Below are positions 1 to 39,677 of a stretch of 43,233 bases of DNA, piece after piece. The notes under the pieces are model-generated. The model made no database searches. It saw nothing but the letters and a program-made list of their open reading frames with translations, and was not told where the DNA came from. The translations under genes were made by a program, and so were the position numbers. Position 1 is the stretch's first letter. Every line of letters begins with the position of its first letter. The DNA comes from a virus (Duplodnaviria; Heunggongvirae; Uroviricota; Caudoviricetes), in the IMG/VR virus record IMGVR_UViG_2516143027_000009; one strand, 5' to 3'.

Positions 1-516
1 ATGAAATTTAAAAAATGTCTTCTGCCTGTGGCAATGTTAGCGTCATTCACTCTGGCAGGATGCCAGTCAAATGCTGATGATCATGCCGCCGATGTTTATC
101 AAACCGATCAACTGAATACCAAACAAGAAACTAAAACCGTTAATATTATTTCCATTCTTCCCGCAAAAGTTGCCGTAGACAACGCCCAAAATAAACGGAA
201 CGCACAAGCCTTCGGCGCGCTTATTGGCGCTGTCGCTGGCGGTGTTATCGGCCACAACGTCGGGTCTGGCAGCAATTCCGGAACGACGGCAGGTGCAGTT
301 GGCGGCGGAGCTGTAGGCGCGGCAGCGGGTTCGATGGTGAATGATAAAACCTTAGTGGAAGGTGTTTCTTTAACATATAAGGAAGGCACCAAAGTGTATA
401 CCTCCACCCAGGTGGGTAAAGAGTGCCAGTTTACGACAGGTTTAGCCGTTGTTATTACCACGACGTATAACGAAACGCGTATTCAGCCAAATACCAAATG
501 TCCTGAAAAGAGCTAA
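1..516 (+). CDS. yfgH: Outer-membrane lipoprotein with glycine-zipper motif (host gene, likely YfgH-like)
   Basis: ATG at position 1; lipoprotein signal peptide with lipobox LAGC; Gly/Ala-rich GxxxG zipper (GALIGAVAGGVIGHNVGSG). Symbol is from memory of the E. coli yfgH-yfgI pair and length match, tentative. Confidence 0.6.
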   Translation: MKFKKCLLPVAMLASFTLAGCQSNADDHAADVYQTDQLNTKQETKTVNIISILPAKVAVDNAQNKRNAQAFGALIGAVAGGVIGHNVGSGSNSGTTAGAVGGGAVGAAAGSMVNDKTLVEGVSLTYKEGTKVYTSTQVGKECQFTTGLAVVITTTYNETRIQPNTKCPEKS

Positions 517-2689: not shown

Positions 2690-3080
2690 CGTCTTTTCTC
2701 CCCGGAATTAACTCGCGTGGATTATCGGAACGGTGATAGAGCCATATACCAATACGCACAGCGACAATTGCTGACACGAATGCGCCTGCAGAGAAAACAA
2801 TCCCTTTTTCAAAAGAGTCCTGCGTGATGGTAGGGATCAGGCTGGCTATGCCGATAAGAATTGATGCTGCTGGTTTGTAAAAGAGAAGGCCGCAAAGAAA
2901 GCTGAGCATCGACAGGAGCACCCGGCGACGGATGGGGTACTCTACTGCAGAGGTAACAAAAATTACCGCCCCAGCCAAAGCCCCTAAAGCAACCTCCGGA
3001 GGGACACCTGCAATAACCGCAGCAAGAGAACCAAAACTAAGCAACTGATTTAATTGCTCACTTGTTACTTGAGCAGACAT
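2676..3080 (-). CDS. Holin (class I-like, three TM helices)
   Basis: 134 aa, three hydrophobic helices, charged C-terminus, first gene of the lysis cassette. Confidence 0.55.
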   Translation of the reverse strand: MSAQVTSEQLNQLLSFGSLAAVIAGVPPEVALGALAGAVIFVTSAVEYPIRRRVLLSMLSFLCGLLFYKPAASILIGIASLIPTITQDSFEKGIVFSAGAFVSAIVAVRIGIWLYHRSDNPRELIPGRKDDGNA

Positions 3081-3361: not shown

Positions 3362-3388
3362 CCCGCAAAATATTGCGGGCTTTTTTTT
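3362..3388 (+). terminator. Rho-independent terminator, plus-strand orientation, overlapping tailspike stop
   Basis: Hairpin CCCGCAAAATATTGCGGG followed by T8 on the plus strand; the minus-strand reading lacks a U-tract. Confidence 0.5.
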
Positions 3389-6300
3389 AACGTTCTTCCA
3401 GAGACTGAATCCGCTCTTTTATCTTATCCATTTCTCTGCGCTGCCATGCCGCCTCGATATAGAATAAGAGATCAGGTCTGACCCCCCATCTAGATCCTGC
3501 TGGCGTTATTTCAACGCGCTCAATGATGTCTTCCATTACCATCACTGGATTATCATCCTCATCAACAATGATGCTCCCTTCATTATCAGTCAGCGGCATT
3601 TCCCTTTGGCCAGTAATGACGTCATCATATACTGCGGGATAATCGTCATAGCAAAGAAAGGCATAGCGGCATGTTGTGCTTTCTTCTTCCATGAGTCCGT
3701 GAGAAATAAGAACATCACGAAGTTGCTGCGCGATTACACCATGATGTATCCTCGCCCCTTCTTCCCCCTTTATAGCGACAGCGTTCAGCCATTTATAAGC
3801 GATATACCTGACGTCACCCCAGGCATCCAGCAATGCTTCGTCAGGAGAGACCGGCTCTGTCTTTAATGTTCCGTCACTGGTAACCACAGGATTGGAGCCA
3901 AGATAAACTGTCGAGAACCTGTTTCCCGGACCACCAAGAGCATTTACATTATCAAGATAAGGTTTAACATCTCCGTTCTCAAAAAGATGTTCGAGTGCGT
4001 TATATACCGCGCGACGTGGAGTACTGCTTCCGGAACCATGCAACGTTATCATTGCACCATCTGCTGAAGACGTTGTTTCACCGCCGCTAACGATTAATCT
4101 CTGAGCGGTAACATCATCAGACGGTACTTTCTTCGCAATAATGGCGTAATTACCCTCAAGTTTGACTTCCGCGCGAACTTGTCCTGATGTACCTGCATGG
4201 ACAGTCAGTGACTGGACGGCAACATCATCTGTGAAATCAACGGGTACAGGAACCGTCCTCACGCCTGACGTCGACATAAAAGTAGGAAGCGTTCTGTTAG
4301 GAGTGGCTCCGTAGACAAAATCCCTTGAAACAAATTCTTCCTGTTTAATTTTCACCCTGAAACAATACAAATCAGCCGGGTGACCATCGTGAACATAAGG
4401 ATATTTTCTGTTGTTATCCCCTATGCTCCATGGGTTTAGAAAGTCTTCCCCACCGAAAATGTAGTACAGCCAGTTGTCTTTGATACAAACTGAACCAACA
4501 CCAACCGCAGAGTTAACTATTCCGCCCTGATAAATCTGATCAGTAACATTAACCCACTCTACATTATCCAGACTCCACTCATTGACGTTAACTCTGGTCA
4601 TAAATGTTCTTGGATAATTTCCTGCATAACGGTTATCAGGTTCTCCTCCTTCCCACTCACCAAATGCGCGCTCACTGCCAAAAATAATCAGCTCATCGCC
4701 AACTTTGGCAAAAGGAAGGTTTGAGTGATGAACATTATTTGGGAAGCGAAGAGAATTCCATGATGTACCTAAATCAGAGCTTCTGTGCAATGAACTACCG
4801 GGTTGAGTACTTAATGTCCCCCTGGTCGTCAGATACAGAATGCCATCATAATATTTTACACATGGCTCAGATGCATTCGCCTCATATTCTGCAGGTATGC
4901 GTCTGCGAACAAAGCTACCAGGAGAACCGAAAGCATCAGAGAAATAGAGTATCCCAAGCTCGCGTGGACCAATATCACCATTATGGTAGCCAACAGCAAA
5001 ACTGTTATCGCTAATCGTCGCAAAACTGTGAATCTCAGTAACAGGAGTGCTTCCGTCAACAAAAGAAGGAATAGTTCCAAGACTGGTTTTTCTCCATGGT
5101 GACGAGTGAAATGATGTACCAAAACTCCAGTATCTACCCTCGTTATTCTGATCCACATCCTGGGTATTTTGCGTCGTAACTGTAAAAGTATTTTTATCAA
5201 TAACAGTAGTCACCGTCATATTCCCGGTAACACCTGTAACACCAGAGTTTGAGAAGTTGACAAAATCACCAGCAAATAATCCGTGATCAGTAATGCGAAT
5301 ATAAGCGACTTGCTGATTTGCTGCTTTCGTTATACCACCATAAACGCGAAGGCTGCGACTCATTGGGCGATCCCACAACTCTGCAACCTGCAGTTTATTT
5401 CCGCTCACGGTCCGCGTCTCAATTACAGCAAAAAGGCGATTTCTGACAACCCCCATACTCATGCAGTGATAGTTAACTGTGGGATAGTTTTCATGTAAAT
5501 CTGTAAGCCATTCCGGCGTTGTCCAGGTCTTCCCGTCATCTCCTGAGCGAACCCATGCAACATGGAGGTTATTTACACCATGGCGGTCTCCAGCCATAAA
5601 AGGCGCATAGATGACATTGTCATATACAAACGTTTTATCCTGCGTCCAGGCGTTGTACCACGGTGTATCTGTAATTTTAAATAACTCTCCCTGGATAAAA
5701 TCTTCAGAAGCATAAAAAAGAGGCTGACCCGGTATTCTCTCAAATAAAAAACGAGCATTTTTAAATCGACTGACATCCGGAAGAGTTGATACTTTAAAAG
5801 TAAGCCCTAATCCGTCAATTTTATAACCTGGAGATGAGGCTTCAAGGCACGCGCTTATTGCAGTGGAATCGTCATTTATACCATCACCAACAGCTCCAAA
5901 ATCTTTGGGGCTAATAGCATCACGCATTTTATCCTGGAACGTTCGGTACACAGCCCCAGAACCATACTGAATAAACCAACCAAAACCACCAACAACCCCG
6001 GCGATTGCAGCATCGACATAATTACGCATTGAGCGATTATTTACAGCGTCCTGCTCAAATGATGGATCTGCAAGGTTAGAAATTTTGTTTTGCTTTGCAT
6101 CGTAATATTTTGCAAGCAAAGATGGTTTCATCAATGCACGTCTGAACCACCCAAAACATTGCTGGATCAGCATCGTCAGGTAGTCAAAGGCATCTTCATG
6201 CACTTCGGGGAAAAATTTTCCCTGATTGCGAAGGTCTGTCTCCTGCACTACATCAAGCACACGATCTATCGTAATTCGCCATCCAGTAGCAAGCGGAGAC

Positions 6301-6506
6301 GGAAGAACCACAGAACCGCCACTATAAGTGCCCGCCCCAGTTACCGTATAACCGGTATCCAGAACCAATTCTGTTACGTTTCCGTTCAGGTCAGACACCT
6401 GAACAACCAGGTCTGATTTTCTGAAAATTCGAAAAGTATACGGAAACGATGTCGTAACGCCGTTACCGGTGTATTCGTTGTGGTCAACTTCGGTTGAGAC
6501 CGTCAT
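3387..6506 (-). CDS. Tailspike or tail fiber protein with C-terminal intramolecular chaperone (peptidase S74-like) domain
   Basis: 1039 aa; N-terminal podovirus tail-fiber anchor-like segment (TGNGVTTSFPYTF); C-terminal ~150 aa resembles the self-cleaving chaperone domain of endosialidases and L-shaped fibers; position after the internal virion protein genes. Confidence 0.75.
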   Translation of the reverse strand: MTVSTEVDHNEYTGNGVTTSFPYTFRIFRKSDLVVQVSDLNGNVTELVLDTGYTVTGAGTYSGGSVVLPSPLATGWRITIDRVLDVVQETDLRNQGKFFPEVHEDAFDYLTMLIQQCFGWFRRALMKPSLLAKYYDAKQNKISNLADPSFEQDAVNNRSMRNYVDAAIAGVVGGFGWFIQYGSGAVYRTFQDKMRDAISPKDFGAVGDGINDDSTAISACLEASSPGYKIDGLGLTFKVSTLPDVSRFKNARFLFERIPGQPLFYASEDFIQGELFKITDTPWYNAWTQDKTFVYDNVIYAPFMAGDRHGVNNLHVAWVRSGDDGKTWTTPEWLTDLHENYPTVNYHCMSMGVVRNRLFAVIETRTVSGNKLQVAELWDRPMSRSLRVYGGITKAANQQVAYIRITDHGLFAGDFVNFSNSGVTGVTGNMTVTTVIDKNTFTVTTQNTQDVDQNNEGRYWSFGTSFHSSPWRKTSLGTIPSFVDGSTPVTEIHSFATISDNSFAVGYHNGDIGPRELGILYFSDAFGSPGSFVRRRIPAEYEANASEPCVKYYDGILYLTTRGTLSTQPGSSLHRSSDLGTSWNSLRFPNNVHHSNLPFAKVGDELIIFGSERAFGEWEGGEPDNRYAGNYPRTFMTRVNVNEWSLDNVEWVNVTDQIYQGGIVNSAVGVGSVCIKDNWLYYIFGGEDFLNPWSIGDNNRKYPYVHDGHPADLYCFRVKIKQEEFVSRDFVYGATPNRTLPTFMSTSGVRTVPVPVDFTDDVAVQSLTVHAGTSGQVRAEVKLEGNYAIIAKKVPSDDVTAQRLIVSGGETTSSADGAMITLHGSGSSTPRRAVYNALEHLFENGDVKPYLDNVNALGGPGNRFSTVYLGSNPVVTSDGTLKTEPVSPDEALLDAWGDVRYIAYKWLNAVAIKGEEGARIHHGVIAQQLRDVLISHGLMEEESTTCRYAFLCYDDYPAVYDDVITGQREMPLTDNEGSIIVDEDDNPVMVMEDIIERVEITPAGSRWGVRPDLLFYIEAAWQRREMDKIKERIQSLEER

Positions 6507-6610
6507 GTTAAATCTCCAGATAGTCGCAGCACCCGTTGCGCCGCATATCTGGTTATTCTATTACCTGGAAAACCACATATGGATAGAAAGGCTGTAAATA
6601 CGAATAGATA

Positions 6611-6625
6611 TTACCTTTCAGGTAA
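6611..6625. promoter_or_regulatory. Operator-like palindrome TTACC-TTTCA-GGTAA (copy 1)
   Basis: Same 5-5-5 palindrome as in the OR/OL regions; lies between the tailspike start and the 6702 gene. Confidence 0.5.
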
Positions 6626-6662
6626 TTTGCAAAACGTGCTGGATAGCAAACAAATTATTTGA

Positions 6663-6682
6663 TACTGTATAAATATACAGTT
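6663..6682. promoter_or_regulatory. LexA (SOS) box TACTGTATAAATATACAGTT
   Basis: Perfect CTGT-N8-ACAG with AT-rich spacer, about 20 bp upstream of the RBS and ATG of the 6702 gene. Confidence 0.7.
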
Positions 6683-6701: not shown

Positions 6702-6959
6702 ATGCAGCAGTATCACTATCCACTGGAAGACGGATTTACCGAAAGGATTCACACGCCGGGAGGCGTCAGGTCACTGGTGGAGGGATCGCACTTGATGAAA
6801 TTACTCCGGGATCTCGATAAGGATGGATTTAATGTCGATGGCCCACTTGCCGAACTGACTGCACTGATTAACTACGTCACCAGCTCACAGATGTCTATGC
6901 AGGATCTGCAAACACATCTCGACTATTGTGCCGAACAATTACGAAAACAAACCCGGTAA
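6702..6959 (+). CDS. Small antirepressor-like protein: standalone copy of the module shared by three antirepressor fusions
   Basis: RBS GGAGAAG then ATG 6702; 85 aa; roughly 40% identity by eye to the C-terminal ~80 aa of the 8108, 9930 and 41299 gene products (shared PL..G...IH.P.GV..L.E.S.LM.LL..L..DG..V.G..AELT....Y......QTH..Y). Confidence 0.6.
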   Translation: MQQYHYPLEDGFTERIHTPGGVRSLVEGSHLMKLLRDLDKDGFNVDGPLAELTALINYVTSSQMSMQDLQTHLDYCAEQLRKQTR

Positions 6960-12325: not shown

Positions 12326-13438
12326 TCACCGCATCACCGGATCCACTTGGTTTATTAGTGGCGCAATCCAGAACAGGTTATTGCCGGGTATCAGGGTTCG
12401 GACATTATGCACAATACGATCACCGGCATCACCATTCAACACTCCTGAGGTCACATCAATGATGCTATCCGCAAGACCAAATGACGGTCCGAATAGAGAT
12501 CCTACGAATCCACGACTGGCATACCTGGACTGTGTGCCAGTGCCAAATAAAGCCCCCAGCCCAACAGCACCACCAGTCGCCTTTTCAGCCATGTTGTTAT
12601 ATTCCATCAATGGCCCAAGAATACCGGATCTATCTATACCCTCAAGCACCAGCTTCTCTGGTGACCAGTCAACATTTTTCCCTTTCGATGCTTCTTTAAG
12701 CGCATAGACCAGTGAGCCAAGAGCAATCTGAAATGCAGTGCCATAATAAAATTGCGCAGTTCCTTCCTGTAACCCACCAAGTAGCGCACGGTTGTATGAA
12801 GCCGTTGTGAATGATTTAAACTGAAATATCGTTCGCCCCATTGGAGTACTCGCCCATAAAGGTGTGTCACCAATACCGGGGGTGATGATAGTGTTATTAA
12901 CGTCTTTCAGAACCGCTGACTGGAATACTCCGGCAACGTACTGATCGTCCCATTTATCAAAGTTACCAATGTGCCATCCATCAATTACCTCACCATGTTT
13001 CTCGAACTCACTGCGAATACGCGCAGCCATATTGTCGTTGATACCGAGTTTTGCCATGCGACGTGCAGAAAACGCACCAGACAAAATACCGTCTGACGTG
13101 AGCATTCCGTTCATGGATTTGTTTATGTCATTAAATCGATCCATGAGTGTCAGCTTGCCGAAGGCATCAGTAATTCGCTCCATTCCTGCTTCGACTGCTG
13201 TTGTCCTGGAAGAACTGTCAACAAGATCACCAATTGCACGAGAACGTGAATGTAGTACAGTTTCCAATCCAATCCCCATCTTCAACATCTCTTCTTTGCT
13301 GGCCTTAAATGCCGGTGATTGGGATATCTGAGAAGCATAGCCTTTCATGGAGTTACGGAAACCATTAACCATAACCCCTCTGGCCAGATCTGGAATAGCT
13401 GATACTGTCATTCCACCGAGTTTGGTCGTGAAGTTCAC
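12326..13438 (-). CDS. Internal virion or ejection protein
   Basis: 370 aa, Gly/Ser-rich, last gene of the internal-protein cluster; position by analogy with T7-like gene order. Confidence 0.55.
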   Translation of the reverse strand: MNFTTKLGGMTVSAIPDLARGVMVNGFRNSMKGYASQISQSPAFKASKEEMLKMGIGLETVLHSRSRAIGDLVDSSSRTTAVEAGMERITDAFGKLTLMDRFNDINKSMNGMLTSDGILSGAFSARRMAKLGINDNMAARIRSEFEKHGEVIDGWHIGNFDKWDDQYVAGVFQSAVLKDVNNTIITPGIGDTPLWASTPMGRTIFQFKSFTTASYNRALLGGLQEGTAQFYYGTAFQIALGSLVYALKEASKGKNVDWSPEKLVLEGIDRSGILGPLMEYNNMAEKATGGAVGLGALFGTGTQSRYASRGFVGSLFGPSFGLADSIIDVTSGVLNGDAGDRIVHNVRTLIPGNNLFWIAPLINQVDPVMR

Positions 13439-15339
13439 ATCCCGCAGAAAAGCGCCAGCACGAACAAAAACGAAGACGGGTCATCAGGCATACCATATGT
13501 ACCAACAAGACGATCGCGTAATGCTGTTATGTCTCTGAGATCATTTGCTCTTGATTTTGAAAGTCTGGACTGTTCTTTCCGTAATTCCTTTTCGTACTTT
13601 CGCATTAATGAATCGAGTTTACCCTGAGGAACAACTTCACCATTGCTCTCATAACGTGCTTTCAGATTTGCCACACTTTCGTCATATTTCGCCTTTATTT
13701 TTTCAGGCACTTCCCGTAACAGACTGTCATATTCGTCCTCAATTAATTGCAGACGCTCTGTCATAGTTCGTTTGCCAAATGTTCTCGTCAACTCAATTTC
13801 TGCTGCCGCTTCACGGATATGACGTTGTAGAACGTAATTCACATCACTTTCGAGATAATCCCTGATAAGACTATCAGGCACATTTAATGTTCTTTCTTTC
13901 GTACTACCTGCGGCTTTTACAGAAAATACGCTGACAAAATCCTGTGGAACCTTAGCACCAGTAATTTTATTAATTACGATATCCGCTGCAATTTCAGCAT
14001 CCTCAGGATCCAGTGTTTTATTGCCTCTCGACCACCAGTCAACCAAAATACGTCGAAATTTATCGCGTTCACTGATTATTTTTCCAACTTTATATATACG
14101 TGGGAAATAGCTTGCCTGGCCTAATGCTTTCAGTTCTTCATCTGGCGGCAATAAACCAAGCTTTTGCATTTCAACCTTCACCCGATTTAATACAGTTCGC
14201 ATCGCCTGCGCCGTTTCCTGAACAACAGGATTAGCATGCACATCACCGCTTCGCATAGCATTCCCAACCTGCTGACGAAATGAATCAAAACTCATGTCAC
14301 CACCATCAGCTTTATACTTTGCGTATGCCTGTTTATTTCCGACAACAACAGCAGCTTCTTCACGCTGCCATCCACGTGTACGGGTTTCTACAGCTACCGG
14401 TGTTTCAATCCCCCTTTCATTTCCTTTAAGGGTGAAATTATTTTCGGCTAACTCCAGCGTTGTTTTTCGCACTGTCTTGGACGGAGACTCCATTAACCTT
14501 GTCAAAGGAGTAAGATAGCTCCCTGCTTTCCATGCAGCCTTTCCAACCACCCCACCGGAAACAGGGGTTAAATCATCCAGAGTCGCTGTATCAATTTTCA
14601 TAGCACCAACACTACCACCATCAGAAAGCGAAGCGGCAGCCCTGTCAGTCGCTGATGTAATGCTCATATTATCAAGAGCATCAGCAACCTCACGCGTGGC
14701 TGCAGCCCGGACGGATGGCGAAAGCGCAACACCAGCACTGGCAAACACGCCGCTCATCATCGCACCCGCTGCAATGTGAGCGGCACTTTCACCCCATGAG
14801 CGTGTTATTTGCTGATTATTCAGCACAACCTCGCTTAATGCTGTACCGGCTGCACCAATCGCAATCTGTGAGCCAATACGCGCCAGTGCCCCTCCTTGAG
14901 CACCGGGGATAAACATTGACGCAACAGTAACCGGATCCATTCCCGCAGCAATACTGGCAAGGGTTCCAACTACGCCAGCATCAGACAATAAACGTCTGTC
15001 TTCATTTTCATCATCTATCTGCTGCTTAATCCACGCCGTTTCCTCTGGCGATCGGGAATCTGCAAATTTCGCCCCCCAGTATTCATAACCGTGCAACTCA
15101 TTTTTATCAGCATATGGGTTATAACCTTCGACCGGTTCAAACTGTCTGGCTGGTCGGAAAAAACCAGCCAGAATATTGTTCTGTCGCATTGCAGCCCCCC
15201 ATACGGAAGGCTCCGGTGGCAATGGCTCAGGATTAGCCCCTTCCGGAAGGGCAACATCAAACCCAGTTTGTTCCGGCAAAACATTACCTGACGGGATCAG
15301 TCCGTTATTAAGATCTTCAGCTTGTGCATAAACTGGCAT
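13435..15339 (-). CDS. Internal virion or ejection protein
   Basis: 634 aa, contiguous with the neighbouring internal virion protein genes on the minus strand. Confidence 0.55.
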   Translation of the reverse strand: MPVYAQAEDLNNGLIPSGNVLPEQTGFDVALPEGANPEPLPPEPSVWGAAMRQNNILAGFFRPARQFEPVEGYNPYADKNELHGYEYWGAKFADSRSPEETAWIKQQIDDENEDRRLLSDAGVVGTLASIAAGMDPVTVASMFIPGAQGGALARIGSQIAIGAAGTALSEVVLNNQQITRSWGESAAHIAAGAMMSGVFASAGVALSPSVRAAATREVADALDNMSITSATDRAAASLSDGGSVGAMKIDTATLDDLTPVSGGVVGKAAWKAGSYLTPLTRLMESPSKTVRKTTLELAENNFTLKGNERGIETPVAVETRTRGWQREEAAVVVGNKQAYAKYKADGGDMSFDSFRQQVGNAMRSGDVHANPVVQETAQAMRTVLNRVKVEMQKLGLLPPDEELKALGQASYFPRIYKVGKIISERDKFRRILVDWWSRGNKTLDPEDAEIAADIVINKITGAKVPQDFVSVFSVKAAGSTKERTLNVPDSLIRDYLESDVNYVLQRHIREAAAEIELTRTFGKRTMTERLQLIEDEYDSLLREVPEKIKAKYDESVANLKARYESNGEVVPQGKLDSLMRKYEKELRKEQSRLSKSRANDLRDITALRDRLVGTYGMPDDPSSFLFVLALFCGM

Positions 15340-19095: not shown

Positions 19096-21566
19096 CAGAA
19101 TCCCCCAACAGTAAGGCGAGGAATAACGGCAAGAACAGACAGCGGCAACGGATCAAGCTGACGGATTTTTACACGTCCGTTTTTGCCCCAGTTACTGTCC
19201 AGTTTCACTTCTACTTTTCCGGTAGCATCATCAACAGGATCATCGTAGAACTCGAATTCACGCTGTGGATATTCGTACCATTTACCGCCGGGCGTAGTCG
19301 CCCAGATGCCGCGACTGGCATTCACAACCAGAGTAACGGACGGGATCACCTGTTTTTTGTCCAGCAGCGTTTCCTGTCCGTTAATGTTGATATCCAGTGT
19401 TTCGAATTCAGCAGTTATTGGCAGGCCGATGTGCACAACAGCCCCAGGTGATTCCAGCGTGACGGCACCTCCGGAAACCACTTTCTGTGGTTCCACGTTC
19501 GCATCAGAGAGGATGTTTACGGTCTGGCCTTCAAGATGAGACAAGCCGCCAAATGTCCGGCGCGCCATCTGCCAGTTCGTGGTGGCCACATTCCTGAGGG
19601 ATGGCGGGACGTTCCTGTTAGCACGAACCACTACAGCGGTATTGCTGGTTACAGAAATAATGTCGCAACGTAATTCTTTTGACACCTCATCGCCAGTATC
19701 AGGATCAGTTCCGGTATAAGGGAACTGTAGTTGCGCGCCGACATCACTACTGGTGAAGTACGCACCACCAGAAACACTGATTGTATATTCCGCGCGGTAA
19801 TCCCATTCGCCAGAACCACCAGTGATGGTCATCGTTCTGTCAGACGTATTTCTTCCATCATAGCTAAGGCCAGAATCAACAAAGAAAGCATCTTCATCGC
19901 TGGTAAATAAACGGCTGGACAGTCGCTCGATGTATCTCACTGTTTGCCCGTTAACGGTTCGGTTAATGACGAAATACACCGCATCTTCATTGCCTTCGCT
20001 GATACTGCATGTGCTTTCATATTTTCCGGTACTGGACTGTGGTGCCCATGCAAAAACCTGTTGATCACGCAGATAGGTCATCACCAGTAATTTACCGTCA
20101 TCACGAATGCAGAAGGCGCTGGAGTAAGGGACAATAGAGAAGCACCAGTCAACAATGCTGTGCTTCTGAAAAAGATGATTGGCAAGGATAGTAAGGTCGT
20201 TCCCCTGATAGCCGTCAACATCGAATGAATAGGCCAGATCACGGACAACACTGCCTTTCTCCTGGACGAACAGAGCAATATTCGCCACGGCAATTGGTGG
20301 GACGTTGCTTGAGCCATTTGATCCCTGAGAGCTGAATGCAAATGATGATGGGGTTAACACTTTGTTCTGGTCGCCGGTGATGACGTACTCACCTCCGGAA
20401 GTCAGCGCCACCAGCGAACCAACATCAATCAGGTGGCGGATCTCATTAACCTGACGCCCGGCATAGGTGTAGATAATTCTATCGTCATCCTGCGTAGGAT
20501 TGCTTTTGCCAAAATCCTTATAATCCCCAGTACGGCTGGCCCAGATAGTCTGAGGGAACGCAGTCGATGCGGCGAAGTAAAGACGCTGTTGATAATAAAC
20601 AACAGTGCCAGGATAACCATTAACACTGTTCCAGGCATATTTAGCCCATTTATAGCTGGCATTATCCTCGCCAACGACCTGCGAAGGGATATAGGAAATC
20701 ACCTCAGCAGTTGCAGTAGTGCCATTTACAGCAGTTATACGGGCAATGCCAAAACCACTGTGCAGATACTCCCACTCAATGCCAGTATCATCATCACCGG
20801 AGCCTCCCCAGCCATCCCATGATGTGCCTTCTGTATGCGAAGGGCGCAAAGTGCCTGTTTTGCCTGCTGTAACGGCGCGATAGTAGTTACTGTCTGCACG
20901 GCGAATATCGCCAATCGACGTACTCTTACTGGTTTCCCATACCGGTACTGAATCCACTGCTGGCTGTTCCAGATAGAACAATTTGCCTACCTGCTCCGCG
21001 CCAAAAATAGAGGCGCTTGCCGTTAACGTAATTGTCCCGGTGCTGGCGCTGGCATAAACCGTCACTGACTCGTCAATATTGATATCTTCAAATGGCCCGT
21101 TCTTCGTTACCACATCAACCAGTTGCCAGTTGTCATGCGCATAGCGGCGCAACTCTTTCGGCGGGTATGCCGGATGAACCAGCGTAAGCACGTCTGCGCT
21201 TTGCGTGAATTTAATTCTGAACAGATCGGCTTCAGTATATGGCGTGGCAATTTCATAAATAACATTGCTGCTGTTCAGCACCAACGCACCATCTTTGATA
21301 ACGCGCATGTACTGGTGTCCGAACTCCAGAGCATAAGTCTGAACCGTCGAGAACTGGAACGGGATCAGGCGGCATTTCCGATTTGGGTATTTGGCGGCAC
21401 CGACAAAACGCGTACCAGGTCGACTCTCAACGCCGCCATACTGCCGCACGATAAAGTTATCGCACTTGCGCAATGCCACCTGGTACTTCGCCATGTCGAT
21501 ACGACCGTACAACGACGGTCCAATCTCACCACCGGCAAAGCTGGGCTGGATCCAACTGATAGCCAT
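19095..21566 (-). CDS. Tail tubular protein B (nozzle, T7 gp12-like)
   Basis: 823 aa; size and position match T7-like gp12 downstream of the gp11-like gene. Confidence 0.65.
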   Translation of the reverse strand: MAISWIQPSFAGGEIGPSLYGRIDMAKYQVALRKCDNFIVRQYGGVESRPGTRFVGAAKYPNRKCRLIPFQFSTVQTYALEFGHQYMRVIKDGALVLNSSNVIYEIATPYTEADLFRIKFTQSADVLTLVHPAYPPKELRRYAHDNWQLVDVVTKNGPFEDINIDESVTVYASASTGTITLTASASIFGAEQVGKLFYLEQPAVDSVPVWETSKSTSIGDIRRADSNYYRAVTAGKTGTLRPSHTEGTSWDGWGGSGDDDTGIEWEYLHSGFGIARITAVNGTTATAEVISYIPSQVVGEDNASYKWAKYAWNSVNGYPGTVVYYQQRLYFAASTAFPQTIWASRTGDYKDFGKSNPTQDDDRIIYTYAGRQVNEIRHLIDVGSLVALTSGGEYVITGDQNKVLTPSSFAFSSQGSNGSSNVPPIAVANIALFVQEKGSVVRDLAYSFDVDGYQGNDLTILANHLFQKHSIVDWCFSIVPYSSAFCIRDDGKLLVMTYLRDQQVFAWAPQSSTGKYESTCSISEGNEDAVYFVINRTVNGQTVRYIERLSSRLFTSDEDAFFVDSGLSYDGRNTSDRTMTITGGSGEWDYRAEYTISVSGGAYFTSSDVGAQLQFPYTGTDPDTGDEVSKELRCDIISVTSNTAVVVRANRNVPPSLRNVATTNWQMARRTFGGLSHLEGQTVNILSDANVEPQKVVSGGAVTLESPGAVVHIGLPITAEFETLDININGQETLLDKKQVIPSVTLVVNASRGIWATTPGGKWYEYPQREFEFYDDPVDDATGKVEVKLDSNWGKNGRVKIRQLDPLPLSVLAVIPRLTVGGF

Positions 21567-26955: not shown

Positions 26956-27045
26956 ATCAATGACTCCGTACGCAATTAAATCATTACCAATTTAACCACA
27001 TATGATTTATTTATCGTAGATGATTGACATTTAACGCACGAATTA

Positions 27046-27060
27046 TTACCTTTCAGGTAA
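27046..27060. promoter_or_regulatory. Operator-like palindrome TTACC-TTTCA-GGTAA (copy 5), next to a TTGACA hexamer
   Basis: Identical to copy 1; TTGACA at 27023..27028; lies between the portal operon start and the structured region and tRNA. Confidence 0.5.
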
Positions 27061-27382
27061 GTAAAGGATTCATTCCGGTTACTAACCTGACTGGCTTGTC
27101 GTTAAATTGAACAGGTGGAGTGAGCTTTTATTTTGAGCAGTACGGCGTATGGCACATGCGCCGATAGCGGTCTGGATACGTTTAAGGGGCACCCTCCCTT
27201 GCTCGGGCAAACGAACCAGGTAGCCGGAATGTGCAAGTCGAGCGGTTTTATTCCGCGCACGGGGATTCACCATCCCGGCGATTCGGTGTGACGCCTCGGA
27301 AGAGACGAGGGTACAACGATGAGAGCATTTATGGAGCCGCGACAAAGTGTGGCGCCTTAACAGGCTAAGTGCTCTCAGCGTT

Positions 27383-27459
27383 GTGGCATTAGCTCAGTTG
27401 GACAGAGCAACCGCCTTCTAAGCGGTTGGTCGCAGGTTCGAATCCTGCATGCCACGCCA
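27383..27459 (+). tRNA. tRNA-Arg (anticodon UCU), phage-encoded
   Basis: Cloverleaf by eye: acceptor GTGGCAT/ATGCCAC, D-arm GCTC-AGTTGGAC-AGAGC, anticodon stem ACCGC/GCGGT with loop CTTCTAA, T-arm GCAGG-TTCGAAT-CCTGC, discriminator G and encoded CCA. Confidence 0.85.
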
Positions 27460-27656: not shown

Positions 27657-28079
27657 ATGAAGACAATTGATATGTTGGCTAAGTATCTAAATGAATGGCC
27701 ATTAAAATATTCTCGTATCGTTCAGGCTGAAGACTGCATTTTTTATGGCGTTTTTGCTGGTAATGAAATGCATTACGAAGTAATTCAGAGTGAGGGACTG
27801 GCCGGGTTAACTCTTAGCGAAGACCATGGTACTAGCGTTACGTACCATGACTGGATTTCAGCGCAGAAAACTGAAATGGAAAAAGGCAATGTGTTTGATA
27901 TTTCTCGCGCTGTATACGCCAAAGAAAAAAGTGATGATGATTACATGCGCGAAAACTTATACAACATGAAGTTACAATGCCTGGCTGAAGTGCTTAGTAA
28001 AAGATCTTTACTTGATGTGGTTGGTGCTGAGCAGGACGCCAAGGCAATCAACGCCGCATTCGATAAAATAACCTTCTAA
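27657..28079 (+). CDS. Hypothetical acidic protein encoded opposite to the late operon (accessory gene)
   Basis: RBS AAGGTGAG; 140 aa; low GC; own terminator; plus strand while the flanking portal and terL are on the minus strand. Confidence 0.6.
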   Translation: MKTIDMLAKYLNEWPLKYSRIVQAEDCIFYGVFAGNEMHYEVIQSEGLAGLTLSEDHGTSVTYHDWISAQKTEMEKGNVFDISRAVYAKEKSDDDYMRENLYNMKLQCLAEVLSKRSLLDVVGAEQDAKAINAAFDKITF

Positions 28080-28100: not shown

Positions 28101-28125
28101 GCCCGCCGATTCGCGGGCTTTTTTA
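28101..28125 (+). terminator. Rho-independent terminator of the 27657 gene
   Basis: Hairpin GCCCGC-CGATTC-GCGGGC followed by T7; overlaps the terL stop. Confidence 0.6.
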
Positions 28126-29598
28126 TGCAAAAGGATCATAGTCTGTGATGGCTTTGCCTTGCTGGTTCTGCTGCCCGGGAATTCGCAGACGCTTCGACAC
28201 AGGGAACGCAAACGTCAGCAGTAGCGCATCGCCTTTACCAGGAGAACGCCCAAGTCGCTCTTTGATATCTTCCTTCGGTTCGATAACGATTTTACCGTCC
28301 ACGCGAACTTTGTACTCTGCCGTCGACAGGTCGTCCGCTGTTTCCTGGTCATCCAGCATGCCGCCGAGCCTCAGCCATGTCTTGCATGAGTTGAACATCT
28401 CCCCACGCTTGTTGAGCATCTGCGGGTCAGTAGACGCGCCACCGAACGGAACAAGTTGCCATGTACGACCCCAGCCGTCACCGATTGACTTCAAACCGGT
28501 TCCGTAACCGAAGTCGATGAACACCGCGTCAGCCTGATACTGGTCTTCAAAGTCAGCGATACGCTTCGCCATAATCAGATCGTCGGTAGTCTTGTTGCCA
28601 GTCCACAGCACCTTACTGTGTAGCCCCTGCCGCAGGTATATCACCGCGTCATCAACGCCGGAGTATGCCGGGTCAACGCCGATTATCACCGGAGCATGTG
28701 CCACCTGCGCAGCGGTTACCACCCGTTTCATTGCCTCGTCAGTAAGACCGGTAGGGATAAACTGCAATTCAGATGCATCAGGGAATATGCCGCGCACACG
28801 GATTTTAACGAAGTCGCTGTCTTCCCCGTAGTCATCAACCCATTTCTGCAACTGCTGTTTGTTAGTGCCTTCCACCGTTCGGCTGTCAATCTGCGCAGTT
28901 TTCCAGCGGTGTTTATATTTGCGGAAACATTCGCGGAAACGTCCGGTATTACGCGTCGGGTTTCCGAACGCCACCCAGATAATCTCAGTGTCTTCGTCCG
29001 TTAGTGCACCCTCGGCAACTTCCCACACCAGATCCGCAATGTTCGACGCTTCATCGAATACCACGATGATGCGTTTGCGCTCGTTGTGTAGTCCGGCGAA
29101 TGCCTCAGTGTTGTGCTCAGACCAGGGGATTGCGTCAGCTCGCCACCGCTTGTCGTGTCCAGGATCATTGCTGTACATCGCGGTAGCGGTACAGGTAAAC
29201 CAGTCTTTCGTGATAGCAAGGTTCGACCACTTGATAATTTCCGGCCAGGTCTTCGTTCGTAGCTGGTTGTCGGTGTTGGCGGTCACCACAACCTTACAAT
29301 CCTCGCAAGTGGACATGCCCCAGTTGATCAGCATTGAGATGAATGCGGATTTACCAATACCGTGACCAGAAGCGCGTGCCAGCATAAGCGGCTGATAACG
29401 CGTCTCTGGATTCTGCAGGTGATCACGTATCTCTCGGAACGCATCGGCCTGCCACTGACGTGGACCGGTAGCATGTGCCAGTTCAGTCCCCTCTTCCCCC
29501 CAAGGGAACGCATAGAGGGCATAGCCAAGCGGATCGTGAGTGAACCCTGCAATATCTTCGATTAACTGCTCTTCAGGAGATAACGCTGCATCTGTCAC
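28123..29598 (-). CDS. terL: Terminase large subunit
   Basis: 491 aa; Walker A-like ARASGHGIGKS ATPase motif near the N-terminus; position after terS. Confidence 0.8.
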   Translation of the reverse strand: MTDAALSPEEQLIEDIAGFTHDPLGYALYAFPWGEEGTELAHATGPRQWQADAFREIRDHLQNPETRYQPLMLARASGHGIGKSAFISMLINWGMSTCEDCKVVVTANTDNQLRTKTWPEIIKWSNLAITKDWFTCTATAMYSNDPGHDKRWRADAIPWSEHNTEAFAGLHNERKRIIVVFDEASNIADLVWEVAEGALTDEDTEIIWVAFGNPTRNTGRFRECFRKYKHRWKTAQIDSRTVEGTNKQQLQKWVDDYGEDSDFVKIRVRGIFPDASELQFIPTGLTDEAMKRVVTAAQVAHAPVIIGVDPAYSGVDDAVIYLRQGLHSKVLWTGNKTTDDLIMAKRIADFEDQYQADAVFIDFGYGTGLKSIGDGWGRTWQLVPFGGASTDPQMLNKRGEMFNSCKTWLRLGGMLDDQETADDLSTAEYKVRVDGKIVIEPKEDIKERLGRSPGKGDALLLTFAFPVSKRLRIPGQQNQQGKAITDYDPFA

Positions 29599-30191
29599 TG
29601 ATTGCCATCCTGACGTTCTTTCAGTCTCTTCCTGGCTGCCGCTATGCGATCAGCAATTGTCACATTCACATTAACATCCAGGCGTTCTTTGAATGCATTG
29701 ACATCGACGTGCTTACCAATCAGTTCGAGGTTCTTCACCTTGTCAGGCCATTTAATTTTTTTGAGGATTGTCTCTATCGAATCCTCGTCCATGTTCATGA
29801 TGGTCGATGACAGATCAAAGCCGCTAAGCGTAGTGCGCCAGATTTTCGGCCACTCGCGGATTGGCTTAAGGCTCCCATCGTCGTTGAGGATATCAATCAC
29901 GTCCATCTGGTCGATCTCCACCAGGCGCATGAGAACGTAATCAGCACTGACGCGCATTCGTTTGTTGCGCTCCTCCATCAACTCGGCAATCCGTTTCTGA
30001 ATGCGTTCATCGCGCATCATGACACTGGCTTTAACTGCCGCTGTATTTGGGGAGAATCCTGCATTAATCGCAGCCTGAGTCTGATTTTCAGGCGTTTTGA
30101 TGTATGACTGGCAATAAGCCTCCTGCATTGCTGTTAGTGGCTTAAATTGCGTTGATTTGCGTTTATAGGTTTTAGGTTCAGCAGGCATCAT
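29595..30191 (-). CDS. terS: Terminase small subunit
   Basis: Region AMQEAYCQSYIKTPENQTQAAINAGFSPNTAAVKAS resembles the small terminase DNA-binding domain; start moved to internal Met pair with GGTGG RBS (the ORF extends to 30269). Confidence 0.65.
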   Translation of the reverse strand: MMPAEPKTYKRKSTQFKPLTAMQEAYCQSYIKTPENQTQAAINAGFSPNTAAVKASVMMRDERIQKRIAELMEERNKRMRVSADYVLMRLVEIDQMDVIDILNDDGSLKPIREWPKIWRTTLSGFDLSSTIMNMDEDSIETILKKIKWPDKVKNLELIGKHVDVNAFKERLDVNVNVTIADRIAAARKRLKERQDGNQ

Positions 30192-30196
30192 AACCA

Positions 30197-30230
30197 CCAT
30201 GGTAATAGTTACCGTTGTGGTAATAGTACC
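30197..30230. repeat. Tandem GGTAATAGT(T)ACC repeats directly upstream of terS
   Basis: CCATGGTAATAGTTACC-GTTGT-GGTAATAGTACCATG; half-sites related to the operator but in the opposite arrangement. Confidence 0.5.
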
Positions 30231-30233
30231 ATG

Positions 30234-30260
30234 CAAAATAAAGCCGCCATAGTTGGCGGC
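30234..30260 (-). terminator. Intrinsic terminator between the 30266..30478 gene and terS
   Basis: Minus-strand hairpin GCCGCC-AACTAT-GGCGGC followed by TTTATTTTG. Confidence 0.45.
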
Positions 30261-30265
30261 AGTAT

Positions 30266-30478
30266 TCAAAGTCCATCAAATTCATCGTAAAAACTCTCGT
30301 CAAGATACCCTTCCCATTTACCGCGAATGAAAATTACATCCTCGCCGCAAGGGTGCTGACTGTCGATAACTATATCCCTCCTGGCGCAACCATACTTATG
30401 CATGAGAAATTTAACCTCTTTCGGAAAATTTGCTGAGTTATCTCTCATATCTTCAAGGTCGTAGCGTATTTTTGGCAT
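30266..30478 (-). CDS. Hypothetical small protein
   Basis: 70 aa from Met MPKIRYD with RBS GAAGGTG; the ORF track's upstream extension starts at a GTG inside the palindrome. Confidence 0.5.
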   Translation of the reverse strand: MPKIRYDLEDMRDNSANFPKEVKFLMHKYGCARRDIVIDSQHPCGEDVIFIRGKWEGYLDESFYDEFDGL

Positions 30479-30495
30479 AACACCTTCGTGACATG

Positions 30496-30837
30496 TCACA
30501 CTATTAATTTCGTTTCATGCCAGCCTTTAGTCACCCAGCATTGCGAGTCACCATTACACGGGCATGAATTAACGGGAACTCTCTCGCCGCACTTACCGCA
30601 AAGTTTTCTGCTGATCGATTTTATACGCCCGCGCACACGTGCATCATCCTGGCGGATCAGCAGCGCGATGTACTCGGCCATTTCATAGGGATCGTGACCA
30701 GGGCGCCGGGCGGCGCAGTTCCGCGCCAGCATTTCCTGCTCCTGCTTATCCAGCACCAGTTCAATTTTGCGCTCACCGGCGGCGGACTGCCGAGCGCGCT
30801 GCGCGGCTTTGCGCTCTGCTGCTGATTTAGCCATCAA
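30496..30837 (-). CDS. Small basic protein with C-terminal zinc-finger-like cysteine cluster (possible regulator)
   Basis: 113 aa; Arg/Ala-rich N-terminus; CGKCG...CPCNGDSQC cluster; located just upstream of the packaging genes. Confidence 0.5.
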   Translation of the reverse strand: MMAKSAAERKAAQRARQSAAGERKIELVLDKQEQEMLARNCAARRPGHDPYEMAEYIALLIRQDDARVRGRIKSISRKLCGKCGERVPVNSCPCNGDSQCWVTKGWHETKLIV

Positions 30838-31108
30838 TATTCACCTTTATAGCGAACACCTTTACCGGTTTATCGCCGAAGTGCGGATGTGTGATTGTCT
30901 TGATTTCATATCCGTCATACGGGACGTCAATTCTGCGGCTGGAATCGTCGCGCTTCGGATATCCCTTTGTGATAATCAGGCGGTCATACTCGCGGAACAT
31001 AATTCGCTTATTCCAGTAGTCATTGCACAGGCGATACTCTTCCGTTTTCTCTCCGCGAATCATGGCATCGAAGTATTCACCTTTAACGGCAAGTTGCAGG
31101 TTAGCCAT
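30827..31108 (-). CDS. Hypothetical protein, possibly ASCH/PUA-like fold
   Basis: Strong RBS GGAGGTGAGG before Met MANLQLAV; 93 aa; weak resemblance to ASCH-domain proteins. Confidence 0.45.
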   Translation of the reverse strand: MANLQLAVKGEYFDAMIRGEKTEEYRLCNDYWNKRIMFREYDRLIITKGYPKRDDSSRRIDVPYDGYEIKTITHPHFGDKPVKVFAIKVNIDG

Positions 31109-31368
31109 TACCTCACCTCCAGTCTCCATACCGCCTGACCAATCCGGCTGGCATGGGTATCTTTGGATACTGTTCCGTCTTTAGCCAGCTCCATAAGAAT
31201 TTTGCGCAAATCTGCCGAACGCCATTCTTCATCAGGAAATTCCTTCTCCATTGCCAACCGCAGATTCCAGGTTGCCATCCTGAATGGATATTCCCCGCCG
31301 AGAGCTTTATCTTGCAGGGCAGCCCGGGAACGCATCACCTGCAAAACCTTCTCTTTTACATCCATCAT
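31108..31368 (-). CDS. Hypothetical small protein
   Basis: RBS AGGAGG before the Met-Met start; TAATG overlap with the downstream gene. Confidence 0.45.
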   Translation of the reverse strand: MMDVKEKVLQVMRSRAALQDKALGGEYPFRMATWNLRLAMEKEFPDEEWRSADLRKILMELAKDGTVSKDTHASRIGQAVWRLEVR

Positions 31369-33023: not shown

Positions 33024-33026
33024 GAT

Positions 33027-33103
33027 TTACCTCTGAGGTAATTAAAAACCACATAAGACACGAAATCAATAGAGTTTAGAATATTTTGTTACCCAACAGG
33101 TAA
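33027..33103. promoter_or_regulatory. Two operator-like palindromes (TTACC-TCTGA-GGTAA and TTACC-CAACA-GGTAA; copies 6 and 7)
   Basis: Sites at 33027..33041 and 33089..33103 between the P-like gene stop and the 32676..33023 gene start. Confidence 0.5.
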
Positions 33104-33140
33104 CTATCAAGACATAAAAAAATGCGCTATCGCGCTGGTA

Positions 33141-35291: not shown

Positions 35292-35327
35292 AGCTATTGC
35301 CTGATATTTATTTCAGATAATAAATAT

Positions 35328-35390
35328 TCACCCATAAGGTAACAAAAATCAAGGATGGTTACCTATGAGGTGCATTTACCTGTTGGGTAA
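35328..35390. promoter_or_regulatory. OR-like region with three operator palindromes between Cro-like and repressor genes
   Basis: TCACC-CATAA-GGTAA (35328..35342), TTACC-TATGA-GGTGC (35359..35373), TTACC-TGTTG-GGTAA (35376..35390). Confidence 0.65.
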
Positions 35391-35445
35391 TATTGCTTTA
35401 AATTGAATCATCTACTGATTCATATATGAGGCGATTTTCCAGAAA

Positions 35446-36030
35446 ATGAAAAGTATCCAGGACGTCCGCAGGCAAAATCTCAACGACTTGATCGACCGTG
35501 AATTCAATGGTGTTCAGACGCGGATGGCAGAAAAACTTGGAACTCAGGCAAATCTGGTAAACCGCTGGGCTCTTGGCAAGAAGGTTATCGGCGACCAGGT
35601 TGCGCGAAAAATTGAAGCTGCCGCCAATAAACCCCGTAACTGGCTTGATATCGATCGCTCGCTTTCTCAGGAAGGTTTTCAGCCTGTCGGCCCAAGCGAC
35701 ATTGGTCAGCTGGCGGCTCACAACCTGGAACGCTGGATGAGCGAAAGCCGCGACCTTTCAACACAGGGAAAACTTCACCGCGCATCCGGCGTCGCCCAGG
35801 TGACAATCAGCCGCCTGTTAAACAATGAGGTCAGCGTTTCCATTTCCACCCTGGAGAATGTTGCATCCGCATTCGGGCGTCACGGATATGAACTACTGAT
35901 TCACCCGCACGACCCTGCGACTATCAACTATGACCGCTCACGCTACGCATTGTTACCCGAAACCGAGAAAGCAAAGATCGAAAGTTACATTGAATTTGTC
36001 ATCAACCAGAACGAAAAAAGCAAACAATAA
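35446..36030 (+). CDS. Immunity repressor (CI-like), dual HTH, no S24 peptidase domain
   Basis: N-terminal HTH (TQANLVNRWALGKKVIGDQVARKIEAAANKPRNWL) and a second HTH-like segment (ASGVAQVTISRLLNNEVSVSISTLENVASAFG); no Ser/Lys autocleavage motifs; flanked by operator clusters. Confidence 0.65.
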   Translation: MKSIQDVRRQNLNDLIDREFNGVQTRMAEKLGTQANLVNRWALGKKVIGDQVARKIEAAANKPRNWLDIDRSLSQEGFQPVGPSDIGQLAAHNLERWMSESRDLSTQGKLHRASGVAQVTISRLLNNEVSVSISTLENVASAFGRHGYELLIHPHDPATINYDRSRYALLPETEKAKIESYIEFVINQNEKSKQ

Positions 36031-36050: not shown

Positions 36051-36075
36051 AAGCCGCCTCATGGCGGCTTTTTTA
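36051..36075 (+). terminator. Rho-independent terminator after the repressor gene
   Basis: Hairpin AAGCCGCC-TCAT-GGCGGCTT followed by T7. Confidence 0.65.
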
Positions 36076-36087
36076 TTGCCATCAAGA

Positions 36088-36164
36088 TTACCTTATGGGT
36101 AATTTTTTTAACTCATATCTATTGACATCAAACCAAATACGCATAATCATTACCTCAACGGTAA
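36088..36164. promoter_or_regulatory. OL/PL-like region: two operator palindromes flanking a TTGACA promoter
   Basis: TTACC-TTATG-GGTAA (36088..36102); TTGACA at 36122..36127 with CATAAT about 15 bp downstream; TTACC-TCAAC-GGTAA (36150..36164). Confidence 0.6.
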
Positions 36165-36182
36165 CAAGCCGAGGTAACAAGT

Positions 36183-39428: not shown

Positions 39429-39677
39429 ATGAAAGGTGCATTAGGTAAGAAGGAACTCCTGGCGGTGGTGCCACTGTCATGGAGCACTATCGACCGTATG
39501 GAGCGCGCAGGGGAATTTCCTAAACGCTGGTATATCACTGACAAACGCTGCGCATGGAACCGTGACGAAGTTGAGCGTTGGCTTGATGAACGTCAGGCAG
39601 CAAGCCCGGCAGAGTTCCAGGGTAAAAAACCTCCTGTTCAGCAACGTGTATATCGTCCCGTGAGCAACGCTGCATGA
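39429..39677 (+). CDS. AlpA-family transcriptional regulator or excisionase-like protein
   Basis: 82 aa; HTH region LSWSTIDRMERAGEFPKRWYITDKRCAWNRDEVERWL typical of AlpA/Xis-like proteins. Confidence 0.65.
   Translation: MKGALGKKELLAVVPLSWSTIDRMERAGEFPKRWYITDKRCAWNRDEVERWLDERQAASPAEFQGKKPPVQQRVYRPVSNAA

Follow-up and report, generated by a model that had tools for sequence, protein, structure and literature searches.

A predicted repressor-controlled promoter and a predicted terminator upstream of the terminase genes of an epsilon15-like prophage

The window analyzed here is a stretch of 43,233 nucleotides. It is part of an E. coli chromosome, from yfgH-yfgI to guaA, and contains the whole of a Uetakevirus prophage of the epsilon15/phiV10/TL-2011b type. 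The gene map was taken from the PGAP annotation of the best-matching genome, an avian pathogenic O2:K1 strain. In sequence comparisons, phiV10, TL-2011b, PAS61, ZX5, epsilon15, SPN1S, and Tyrion all matched positions 29400..31200 of the window, and homologous sequence was present in 1954 of 5426 complete E. coli genomes (259 with most of the region). The late genes lie on the minus strand, in the order Zn-finger 'regulator' gene (30837..30496), 70-aa gene (30478..30266), terS (from 30188), and terL. The region upstream of terS probably represents the junction of the early-right operon with the packaging/late operon. Its features are as follows.

30266..30478, minus strand: the 70-aa gene, ending in the stop codon TGA (30268..30266).
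30235..30260, minus strand: predicted intrinsic terminator closing the early-right operon (stem 30260..30243, loop ACTA, U-tract 30242..30235), from a terminator scan.
30223..30231, minus strand: predicted extended -10 element TGgTACTAT (TG at 30231..30230, hexamer TACTAT at 30228..30223), from conservation.
30208..30224, no strand assigned: predicted operator site A, reading ATTACCACAACGGTAAC on the minus strand, with one mismatch to ATTACC-N5-GGTAAT; the epsilon15 orthologue is annotated.
30190..30206, no strand assigned: predicted operator site B, ATTACCATGGTGGTTAT, weak or auxiliary, 18 bp centre-to-centre from site A and overlapping the ribosome-binding sequence.
30198..30194 and 30188..30186, minus strand: ribosome-binding sequence GGTGG and terS ATG, a start kept in all relatives.
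29595..30188, minus strand: terS, small terminase subunit of 197 aa and first gene of the controlled operon (Pfam Terminase_2, E = 9.8e-30; labelled terS in relatives).
29598..28123, minus strand: terL, large terminase subunit, after terS.

Read along the minus strand, the TGA of the 70-aa gene is followed by the hairpin GCCGCCAACTATGGCGGC (30260..30243), then by TTTATTTT (30242..30235) and GCATGGTACTATTACCACAACGGTAACTATTACCATGGTGGTTATG, and finally by the ATG at 30188. The epsilon15 coding sequence begins at the same terS codon, and the epsilon15, Tyrion, and TL-2011b records all start terS at this conserved ATG. The PGAP, phiV10, and SPN1S records instead give a protein of 224 aa that starts at a TTG (30269), which would make the whole region an N-terminal coding extension of terS. 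No stop codon interrupts the frame from 30269 on, either in the window or in many relatives, but the stretch before the ATG shows indels of 1-2 nt, which are not multiples of three, and in-frame stops lie 2-14 codons before it in 5 of 11 distant relatives. The extension would also span the terminator hairpin. We consider a coding role of this kind extremely improbable and rejected it on the indels and in-frame stops of the distant relatives. Since the extension runs through terminator and operator, the long terS of PGAP, phiV10, and SPN1S would start too early.

The terminator that the sequence-only reading had placed on the minus strand after the 70-aa gene was recovered by the scan at 30260..30235. 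It combines a 7-bp stem (six G-C pairs), a 4-nt loop, and the U-tract tail UUUAUUUU directly after the stem. The hairpin RNA folds at -16.2 kcal/mol (z = -5.6), and none of 200 shuffled sequences folded equally well. Most relatives keep the structure; in one of them (L096), substitutions preserve G-U pairing. Two relatives, L087 and L090, have no terminator. The epsilon15 orthologue is annotated as rho-independent (39646..39672).

Between terminator and start codon, the plus strand carries the repeats GGTAATAGTTACC (30201..30213) and GGTAATAGTACC (30219..30230), which share an exact 10-nt direct repeat, TGGTAATAGT, at a spacing of 18 nt. By itself, a local repeat of 10 nt is within chance, as we estimate that about two are expected in 43 kb. 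The operator-type pattern ATTACC-N5-GGTAAT, with up to two mismatches, matched 14 times in the whole window against 1.5 expected, and none of 100 shuffles reached 14. The earlier description of tandem repeats followed by the terS ribosome-binding sequence was accurate in every element. Its view that the half-sites stand in the opposite arrangement to those of the operator was not. The GGTA(A)CTATTACC units on which that view was built are not sites themselves but places where two elements meet: the upstream flank and site A in one case, sites A and B in the other, the sites being abutting 17-bp palindromes of the normal arrangement.

Comparison across relatives distinguished the two ways of parsing the repeats. 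Spacing within each site is constant at 5 nt, while the gap between A and B ranges from 1 to 3 nt. A protein reading the junction palindrome GGTAAT-N-RTTACC would need fixed spacing; therefore, the conserved unit under constraint is the 6-5-6 operator. The repeats before terS are thus best taken, with fair probability, as two side-by-side predicted repressor sites of the ordinary operator type. The GGTACT upstream of site A was considered as a third half-site and rejected, because real sites are invariant at positions 2 and 5, where this hexamer varies: G, T, or A stands at position 2, and C, G, or T but never A at position 5. An attempt to read the motif CATATGTGGTT as a promoter element led to no assignment.

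The same motif is found elsewhere in the prophage and is not specific to the late region. In total, 13 predicted sites of the operator type lie at regulatory regions across the prophage. At least 8 of the 13 fall outside every ORF, in sequence that makes up 5.8% of the window, and the other five, within ORFs, coincide with frames that are probably spurious. The same set occurs at the same relative positions in all five complete relatives. Apart from A and B, the motif search gave the following sites.

36087..36103 and 36149..36165, plus strand: OL, two operator sites 62 bp apart that flank the early-left promoter PL (TTGACA-17-AATCAT), after the repressor gene.
35375..35391, 35358..35374 (weak), and 35327..35343, no strand assigned: OR, between rep and cro; the site at 35327 is also among the weaker sites.
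34990: operator site after cro.
33026..33104, minus strand: operator pair 62 bp apart (sites at 33088 and 33026) after the replication genes and before the DUF1064 gene, whose ribosome-binding sequence the downstream site abuts; epsilon15 orthologue at 35906..35922.
27045..27061, minus strand: operator site before the gp3/portal operon; epsilon15 orthologue at 2931..2947.
6610..6626, no strand assigned: operator site between ant and the tailspike gene; epsilon15 orthologue at 19895..19911.
8889, 7823, and 7730: other sites which, with 6610, belong to the antirepressor/BRO/tailspike region.

This distribution bears on the suggestion that the repeats form part of a pac-like signal recognized by the small terminase, as in SPP1/SF6, where pac lies at the 5' end of terS. 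The position directly upstream of terS would suit such a role, as would headful packaging in this genus (Tyrion is circularly permuted) and a terS of the Terminase_2 type, for which the epsilon15 annotation cites an HHpred match to the SF6 small terminase. With 13 copies in the genome, immunity operators included, the motif is not a unique packaging mark. It also tracks the repressor system rather than one type of terS, and is kept before terS proteins that are only 54% identical. A pac function for the repeats is accordingly highly improbable, and pac itself may lie nearby. Papers on ZX5, PAS61, Tyrion, and the phiV10 reporter phage contained nothing on operators, promoters, or packaging ends beyond the circular permutation of Tyrion.

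To compare sites A and B with the rest of the family, we used a weight matrix trained on non-terS sites from six genomes. Site A is a 17-bp 6-5-6 palindrome that scored 17.7 bits, inside the range of the other sites (12.9-27.2). Site B is a weak example of the same type; its 11.4 bits fall below the real sites and above the best background match (8.8), and its single mismatch falls at a normally invariant position. Among the sites of the window, A ranked 10th and B 14th, both exceeding background.

In relatives, half-sites are constrained and the spacer is free. The half-sites of A are almost invariant, apart from the final base on the right, either T or C, and single differences in L090 and L096, while the 5-nt spacer reads ACAAC, AAAAC, ATAAC, AAAAT, TTCAT, AAATC, or ATATT. 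The bases between A and B differ in identity as well as number. The epsilon15, phiV10, Tyrion, and E. dacicola lineages retain site B, in each case with one mismatch that damages it and with its right half-site abutting the start codon. In other terS lineages it is absent or degenerate, for example in leaders reading ...GGTAATAGTTTTGAGGTTGATATCATG. Tandem sites 17-18 bp apart also occur in OR. Site B is best seen as an auxiliary, lineage-specific site; its role is uncertain, because it is weak and missing from several terS lineages.

The element that carries these sites also encodes a homologue of the cognate repressor, together with an antirepressor gene behind a LexA box.

35446..36030, plus strand: immunity repressor Rep, a 194-aa HTH protein and the proposed binder of sites A and B (SPC32H repressor PDB 5D50_A, E = 3.5e-42, full length).
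6663..6682, plus strand: LexA box CTGT-N8-ACAG, TACTGTATAAATATACAGTT, read from the sequence, before ant.
6702..6959, plus strand: antirepressor gene ant, with an 85-aa product (PDB 5D50_E, E = 5.4e-47).

The N-terminal domain of Rep, with the motif NLV(N/S)RW, is present in every relative whose flank reaches the immunity region. Every relative found shares both this domain and the operator motif, and none combines a different repressor with a different motif in a specificity swap. The shared domain agrees with one operator sequence common to all relatives. We infer that Rep binds sites A and B. Cro could occupy the sites instead of, or besides, Rep.

An annotated counterpart exists in epsilon15. 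Its RefSeq record (NC_004775.2) carries an annotation, 'protein_bind / repressor / lysogeny', at 12..27, directly before terS at 47, and this feature aligns with site A. Further repressor annotations stand at 2931..2947 (before gp3), at 19895..19911 (before the tail fibre), at three positions after the repressor gene, and at 35906..35922. The record ends with the annotated terminator, which lies just ahead of position 1; the sequence there reads ...GGCCGCCGACTATGGCGGCTTTGTTTT joined to GCGTGTTACTATTACCAAAACGGTAATTATTACTTCGGTGGTAACAATG, collinear with the window. Both phages thus share the order Zn-finger gene, terminator, site, and terS, the same distance to the terS ATG, and a weaker second site after the first, the palindrome being ATTACCAAAACGGTAAT in epsilon15 and ATTACCACAACGGTAAC in the window. 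They differ in the 70-aa gene, which in the window is inserted between Zn-finger gene and terminator, in the right half-site of A, which ends in C in the window, and in the mismatch of site B. The epsilon15 record annotates neither a promoter nor site B. The operator consensus ATTACCWDWWNGGTAAT reportedly goes back to Kropinski and colleagues in 2007.

The sequence-only reading had proposed a different occupant: an activator or antiterminator of late genes, for instance the Zn-finger protein encoded at 30496..30837, that would switch on late transcription at the repeats. In most relatives the gene of this protein directly precedes terS, under the label 'transcriptional regulator' (phrog_536). 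The label has no recognizable family behind it, since the protein has no Pfam, NCBIfam, or PDB relative. Nothing ties the protein to the sites, and L087 and L090 keep the sites where the upstream gene has been replaced by another. The repeats are of the same family as OL and OR, their epsilon15 orthologue is annotated as a repressor site, and the spacing of the junction palindrome is not kept. An activator at these sites is, on this evidence, very unlikely. Searches of Pfam, NCBIfam, and PDB likewise revealed no recognizable homologue of the lambda Q antiterminator.

Site A is directly preceded by the pattern TGnTAnnAT, which overlaps it by two bases, the operator beginning with the final AT of the pattern. 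As an extended -10 element, it would start a transcript near 30216 with a leader of about 28 nt, and site A would cover about -8 to +9. A scan of 29400..31200 for canonical two-hexamer promoters found none. No -35 is recognizable, the hexamer at 17-nt spacing being TATGGC, and TACTAT fits the consensus at 4 of 6 positions. Promoters of the extended -10 class do not require a -35. Here TG stands at -15/-14 and the hexamer has A-11 and T-7. As the canonical scan was negative, the case for a promoter rests on conservation.

Conservation was assessed in two samples. The first comprised 95 upstream regions (27 distinct) from IMG/VR, phage records, and GTDB genomes of Pseudocitrobacter, Citrobacter, Klebsiella, 'Ca. 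Erwinia dacicola', Scandinavium, Superficieibacter, Kluyvera, Pseudescherichia, and Buttiauxella, and spanned about ten enterobacterial genera. As a guard against circularity, the second comprised 80 loci selected by similarity to a divergent terS protein alone (54-100% identity to it, with several distinct N-termini), which contained 42 distinct upstream sequences. Among the distinct sequences of both samples, the bases T, G, T, A, A, and T of the element (TG, T-12, A-11, A-8, and T-7) are constant, while the 'n' and hexamer positions 3 and 4 vary, giving TACTAT, TAGTAT, TATTAT, TATGAT, TACCAT, and TAGAAT. The varying positions are those least important in sigma-70 -10 elements.

An operator-type site precedes terS in all 80 of the protein-selected loci. 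TG and a hexamer TA[C/G/T][T/C/G/A]AT accompany it in 42 of 42 distinct sequences, in the register of the window in 40; in the remaining two, the hexamer (TATGAT or TATTCT) is shifted 2 nt relative to the operator. A scan of IMG/VR with the composite pattern pointed to the same location: among the matches listed, 103 of 121 exact ones lay 31-43 nt upstream of a terS homologue. L087 and L090 have an unrelated upstream gene; there, similarity sets in precisely at the TG, and the element is kept.

The register of this element matches that of PL. The -10 of PL is AATCAT in the window and GATTAT or AATTAT in relatives, its final 'AT' forms the first two bases of the operator, and this arrangement is the same in all six genomes compared. 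Because both elements end in the operator's first two bases, the terS element shares the geometry of a bona fide repressed promoter, with TG replacing the -35. We therefore favour a reading in which terS probably has its own promoter, occluded by the repressor.

The most serious rival is a roadblock that needs no promoter. Sites A and B would still bind the repressor, but transcripts reaching terS would start at PR and run through the terminator, perhaps with the aid of an antiterminator, and bound repressor would act in the lysogen as a fail-safe block to elongation, like the stoperators of mycobacteriophages. Such a scheme would account for the missing canonical -35/-10 promoter, for sites that lie downstream of the terminator in a possible transcribed leader, and for the conserved regulator gene just upstream. 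It leaves unexplained why TGnTAnnAT is conserved in all lineages and varies as a sigma-70 -10 does, why it is kept where the terminator is missing, and why it shares the PL register. It would also have to contend with a strong terminator and the lack of a recognizable lambda Q homologue. We regard the roadblock as unlikely.

Read-through transcripts figure in another alternative, in which a hairpin in the leader RNA hides the ribosome-binding sequence and start codon and so insulates terS translation from early transcription. RNA from 30234..30180 folds at -20.7 kcal/mol (z = -4.3), with ACCAC paired to GUGGU and the AUG buried, while RNA from the predicted start point barely folds (-6.6 kcal/mol, z = -0.1). 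Any tandem palindromes, however, would fold in this way. Twelve relatives gave differing structures (z from -1.4 to -4.6), lineages without site B have no 3' arm, and Rfam returned no match. With folds that differ among relatives and no Rfam match, a conserved leader-RNA structure was rejected, and insulation by a hairpin appears very unlikely.

Our data thus bear out the earlier proposal of a late or packaging control region in part. A control region it is, probably with a promoter, given the extended -10 in 42 of 42 sequences. An activator or antiterminator site it does not appear to be, as the repeats form two adjacent palindromes of the OL/OR type and their epsilon15 orthologue is an annotated repressor site. 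The best reading is that control here would be negative, through the immunity repressor.

Taken together, the sequence elements, their conservation, the site family, and the protein homologies make the following model probable. The terminator (30260..30235) would stop PR transcripts coming through the Zn-finger and 70-aa genes. The extended -10 promoter TGgTACTAT (30231..30223), without a -35, would then start the terS-terL transcript near 30216. Site A begins within the -10 hexamer and would cover the predicted start, and the weaker site B would cover the leader as far as the ribosome-binding sequence. In the lysogen, the SPC32H-type repressor (35446..36030) would bind A, probably with help from B, shut out RNA polymerase, and keep the terminase silent. 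Upon SOS induction, the LexA-controlled antirepressor (6702..6959) would strip the repressor from terS and from the other operators, roughly 11 in number, and the promoter would fire. A counterpoint is that direct repression without an activator leaves the delay of late expression after infection unaccounted for.

The protein components of this model resemble those of the SPC32H immunity system (PDB 5D50), which was reportedly described by Kim and Ryu in 2013 and by Kim and colleagues in 2016. The window encodes homologues of both repressor and antirepressor, with a LexA box before ant. A review of the SPC32H work describes the repressor as a tetramer on palindromic DNA that is disassembled by a tetrameric antirepressor. 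A tetramer as reported there would fit paired sites 17-18 bp or 62 bp apart.

In its predicted promoter architecture, the terS element resembles OL/PL and OR/PR of lambda, where a palindromic operator also lies over the -10 and start of a sigma-70 promoter and sites occur in tandem; here the terS element is in the PL register. The lambda repressor, however, acts only at early promoters, and late genes are controlled via Q antitermination at PR'. In the window, sites of the operator type stand before the packaging, portal, and tail-fibre units as well, and in relatives before the lysis unit. Repressor sites spread through the prophage, late region included, recall the stoperators of mycobacteriophages L5 and Bxb1, whose many repressor sites extend over the whole prophage and its late region. 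Stoperators are asymmetric 13-bp sequences in one orientation inside transcribed regions. In contrast, the sites described here are symmetric 17-bp palindromes between genes, and one overlaps a promoter-like element.

As judged from sequence, the element is real but ordinary: an orthologue of the annotated epsilon15 repressor site and terminator, and not a new kind of element. To this annotation the analysis adds a corrected parsing of the repeats, a second and weak site, a well-supported predicted extended -10 overlapped by an operator, and the corrected terS start. More tentatively, the immunity repressor of this phage genus may gate every transcription unit directly, packaging by way of a terminator-insulated extended -10. 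The dozen operators would then form one flat regulon that the antirepressor frees all together, with no lambda-style cascade through an antiterminator or late activator, and tetramers would bridge the pairs at 17-18 bp and at the conserved 62 bp.

The value of these results lies mainly in annotation and in the understanding of a common prophage family, for which they provide a concrete predicted promoter for the packaging operon. They support the view that the epsilon15-like repressor acts directly on late operons, which bears on phiV10-based reporter phages and on the prediction of prophage induction.

The conserved start of terS, the small terminase gene, was the ATG at 30188, which gives a 197-aa product. 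Records from PGAP and those of phiV10 and SPN1S place the start upstream of the terminator, resulting in a terS of 222-224 aa. This long annotation recurred as follows:

29595-30269, minus strand: long terS annotation, window
12965-13639: long terS annotation, close relative L001
41-715: long terS annotation, locus L003
1-669: long terS annotation, locus L004

Two further features lie upstream of the terminator:

30266-30478, minus strand: 70-aa gene, phrog_1541
30488-30499: perfect 12-bp palindrome GTGACATGTCAC, overlapping the Zn-finger gene's stop codon

Relative to phiV10 and TL-2011b, the 70-aa gene is an insertion. Relatives without it retain the remnant ATGCATGATGAATTTGATGGGTTTTGA, an 8-codon mini-ORF which joins both ends of the gene. 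Because of this insertion, the distance between GTGACATGTCAC and the terS promoter varies. The palindrome itself is conserved: epsilon15 (39612-39623), Tyrion and Buttiauxella have it, among others. It is a possible protein-binding site.

In an additional lineage of IMG/VR loci (L139, L156, L174, L193, and L199), the leader after TGTTATTATTACCCTTCAGGTAA(C/T) is longer, at ~40 nt, and ends in GGAGGTGGTTATG. A quick test of these five loci found no terS match. Here a variant form of the module may stand ahead of another first gene.

A second motif, (C)ATATGTGGTT, occurred at four positions:

3141-3150, minus strand: (C)ATATGTGGTT
6571-6580, minus strand: (C)ATATGTGGTT
26994-27003, minus strand: (C)ATATGTGGTT
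33047-33056, minus strand: (C)ATATGTGGTT

At the tailspike gene and gp3/portal of the window, the motif sits ~29-41 nt downstream of the preceding operator-type site, while one copy falls between both sites of the post-replication pair. It also precedes the lysis cassette in the window, where an operator-type site is found in relatives only. The motif was conserved in all five of epsilon15, phiV10, SPN1S, Tyrion, and TL-2011b; it was not present as such in the region upstream of terS. It could be an activator site or a component of middle or late promoters.

The late region is interrupted between terL and the portal operon:

27383-27459, plus strand: tRNA-Arg(TCT) gene
27657-28079, plus strand: opposite-strand gene, whose counterpart in L001 is annotated 'Gp49 family'

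The tailspike gene lies at 3387-6506 on the minus strand. Its counterpart in a closely related prophage, from an avian pathogenic O2:K1 strain, carries the annotation endosialidase, an enzyme that degrades the K1 capsule. The prophage in the window is therefore read as epsilon15-like with a K1-specific tailspike.

The operator pairs, PL, the LexA box and the antirepressor gene lie as follows:

33026/33088: operator pair after the replication genes, window
36087/36149: early-left operator pair (OL), window
35906/35968 and 32554/32616: operator pairs, epsilon15
36122-36150, plus strand: early-left promoter PL, TTGACA-17-AATCAT
6663-6682, plus strand: LexA box, directly before the antirepressor gene
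6702-6959, plus strand: antirepressor gene (~85% identity to the PDB 5D50 antirepressor)

The start-to-start distance was exactly 62 bp in the post-replication and OL pairs, in the window and epsilon15 alike. This shared spacing suggests that one repressor tetramer bridges each pair. PL lies directly behind the repressor gene's terminator (36051-36070) and is overlapped by the operator at 36149-36165. With a LexA box ahead of a PDB 5D50-like antirepressor gene, induction probably proceeds through SOS-controlled antirepression rather than repressor cleavage.
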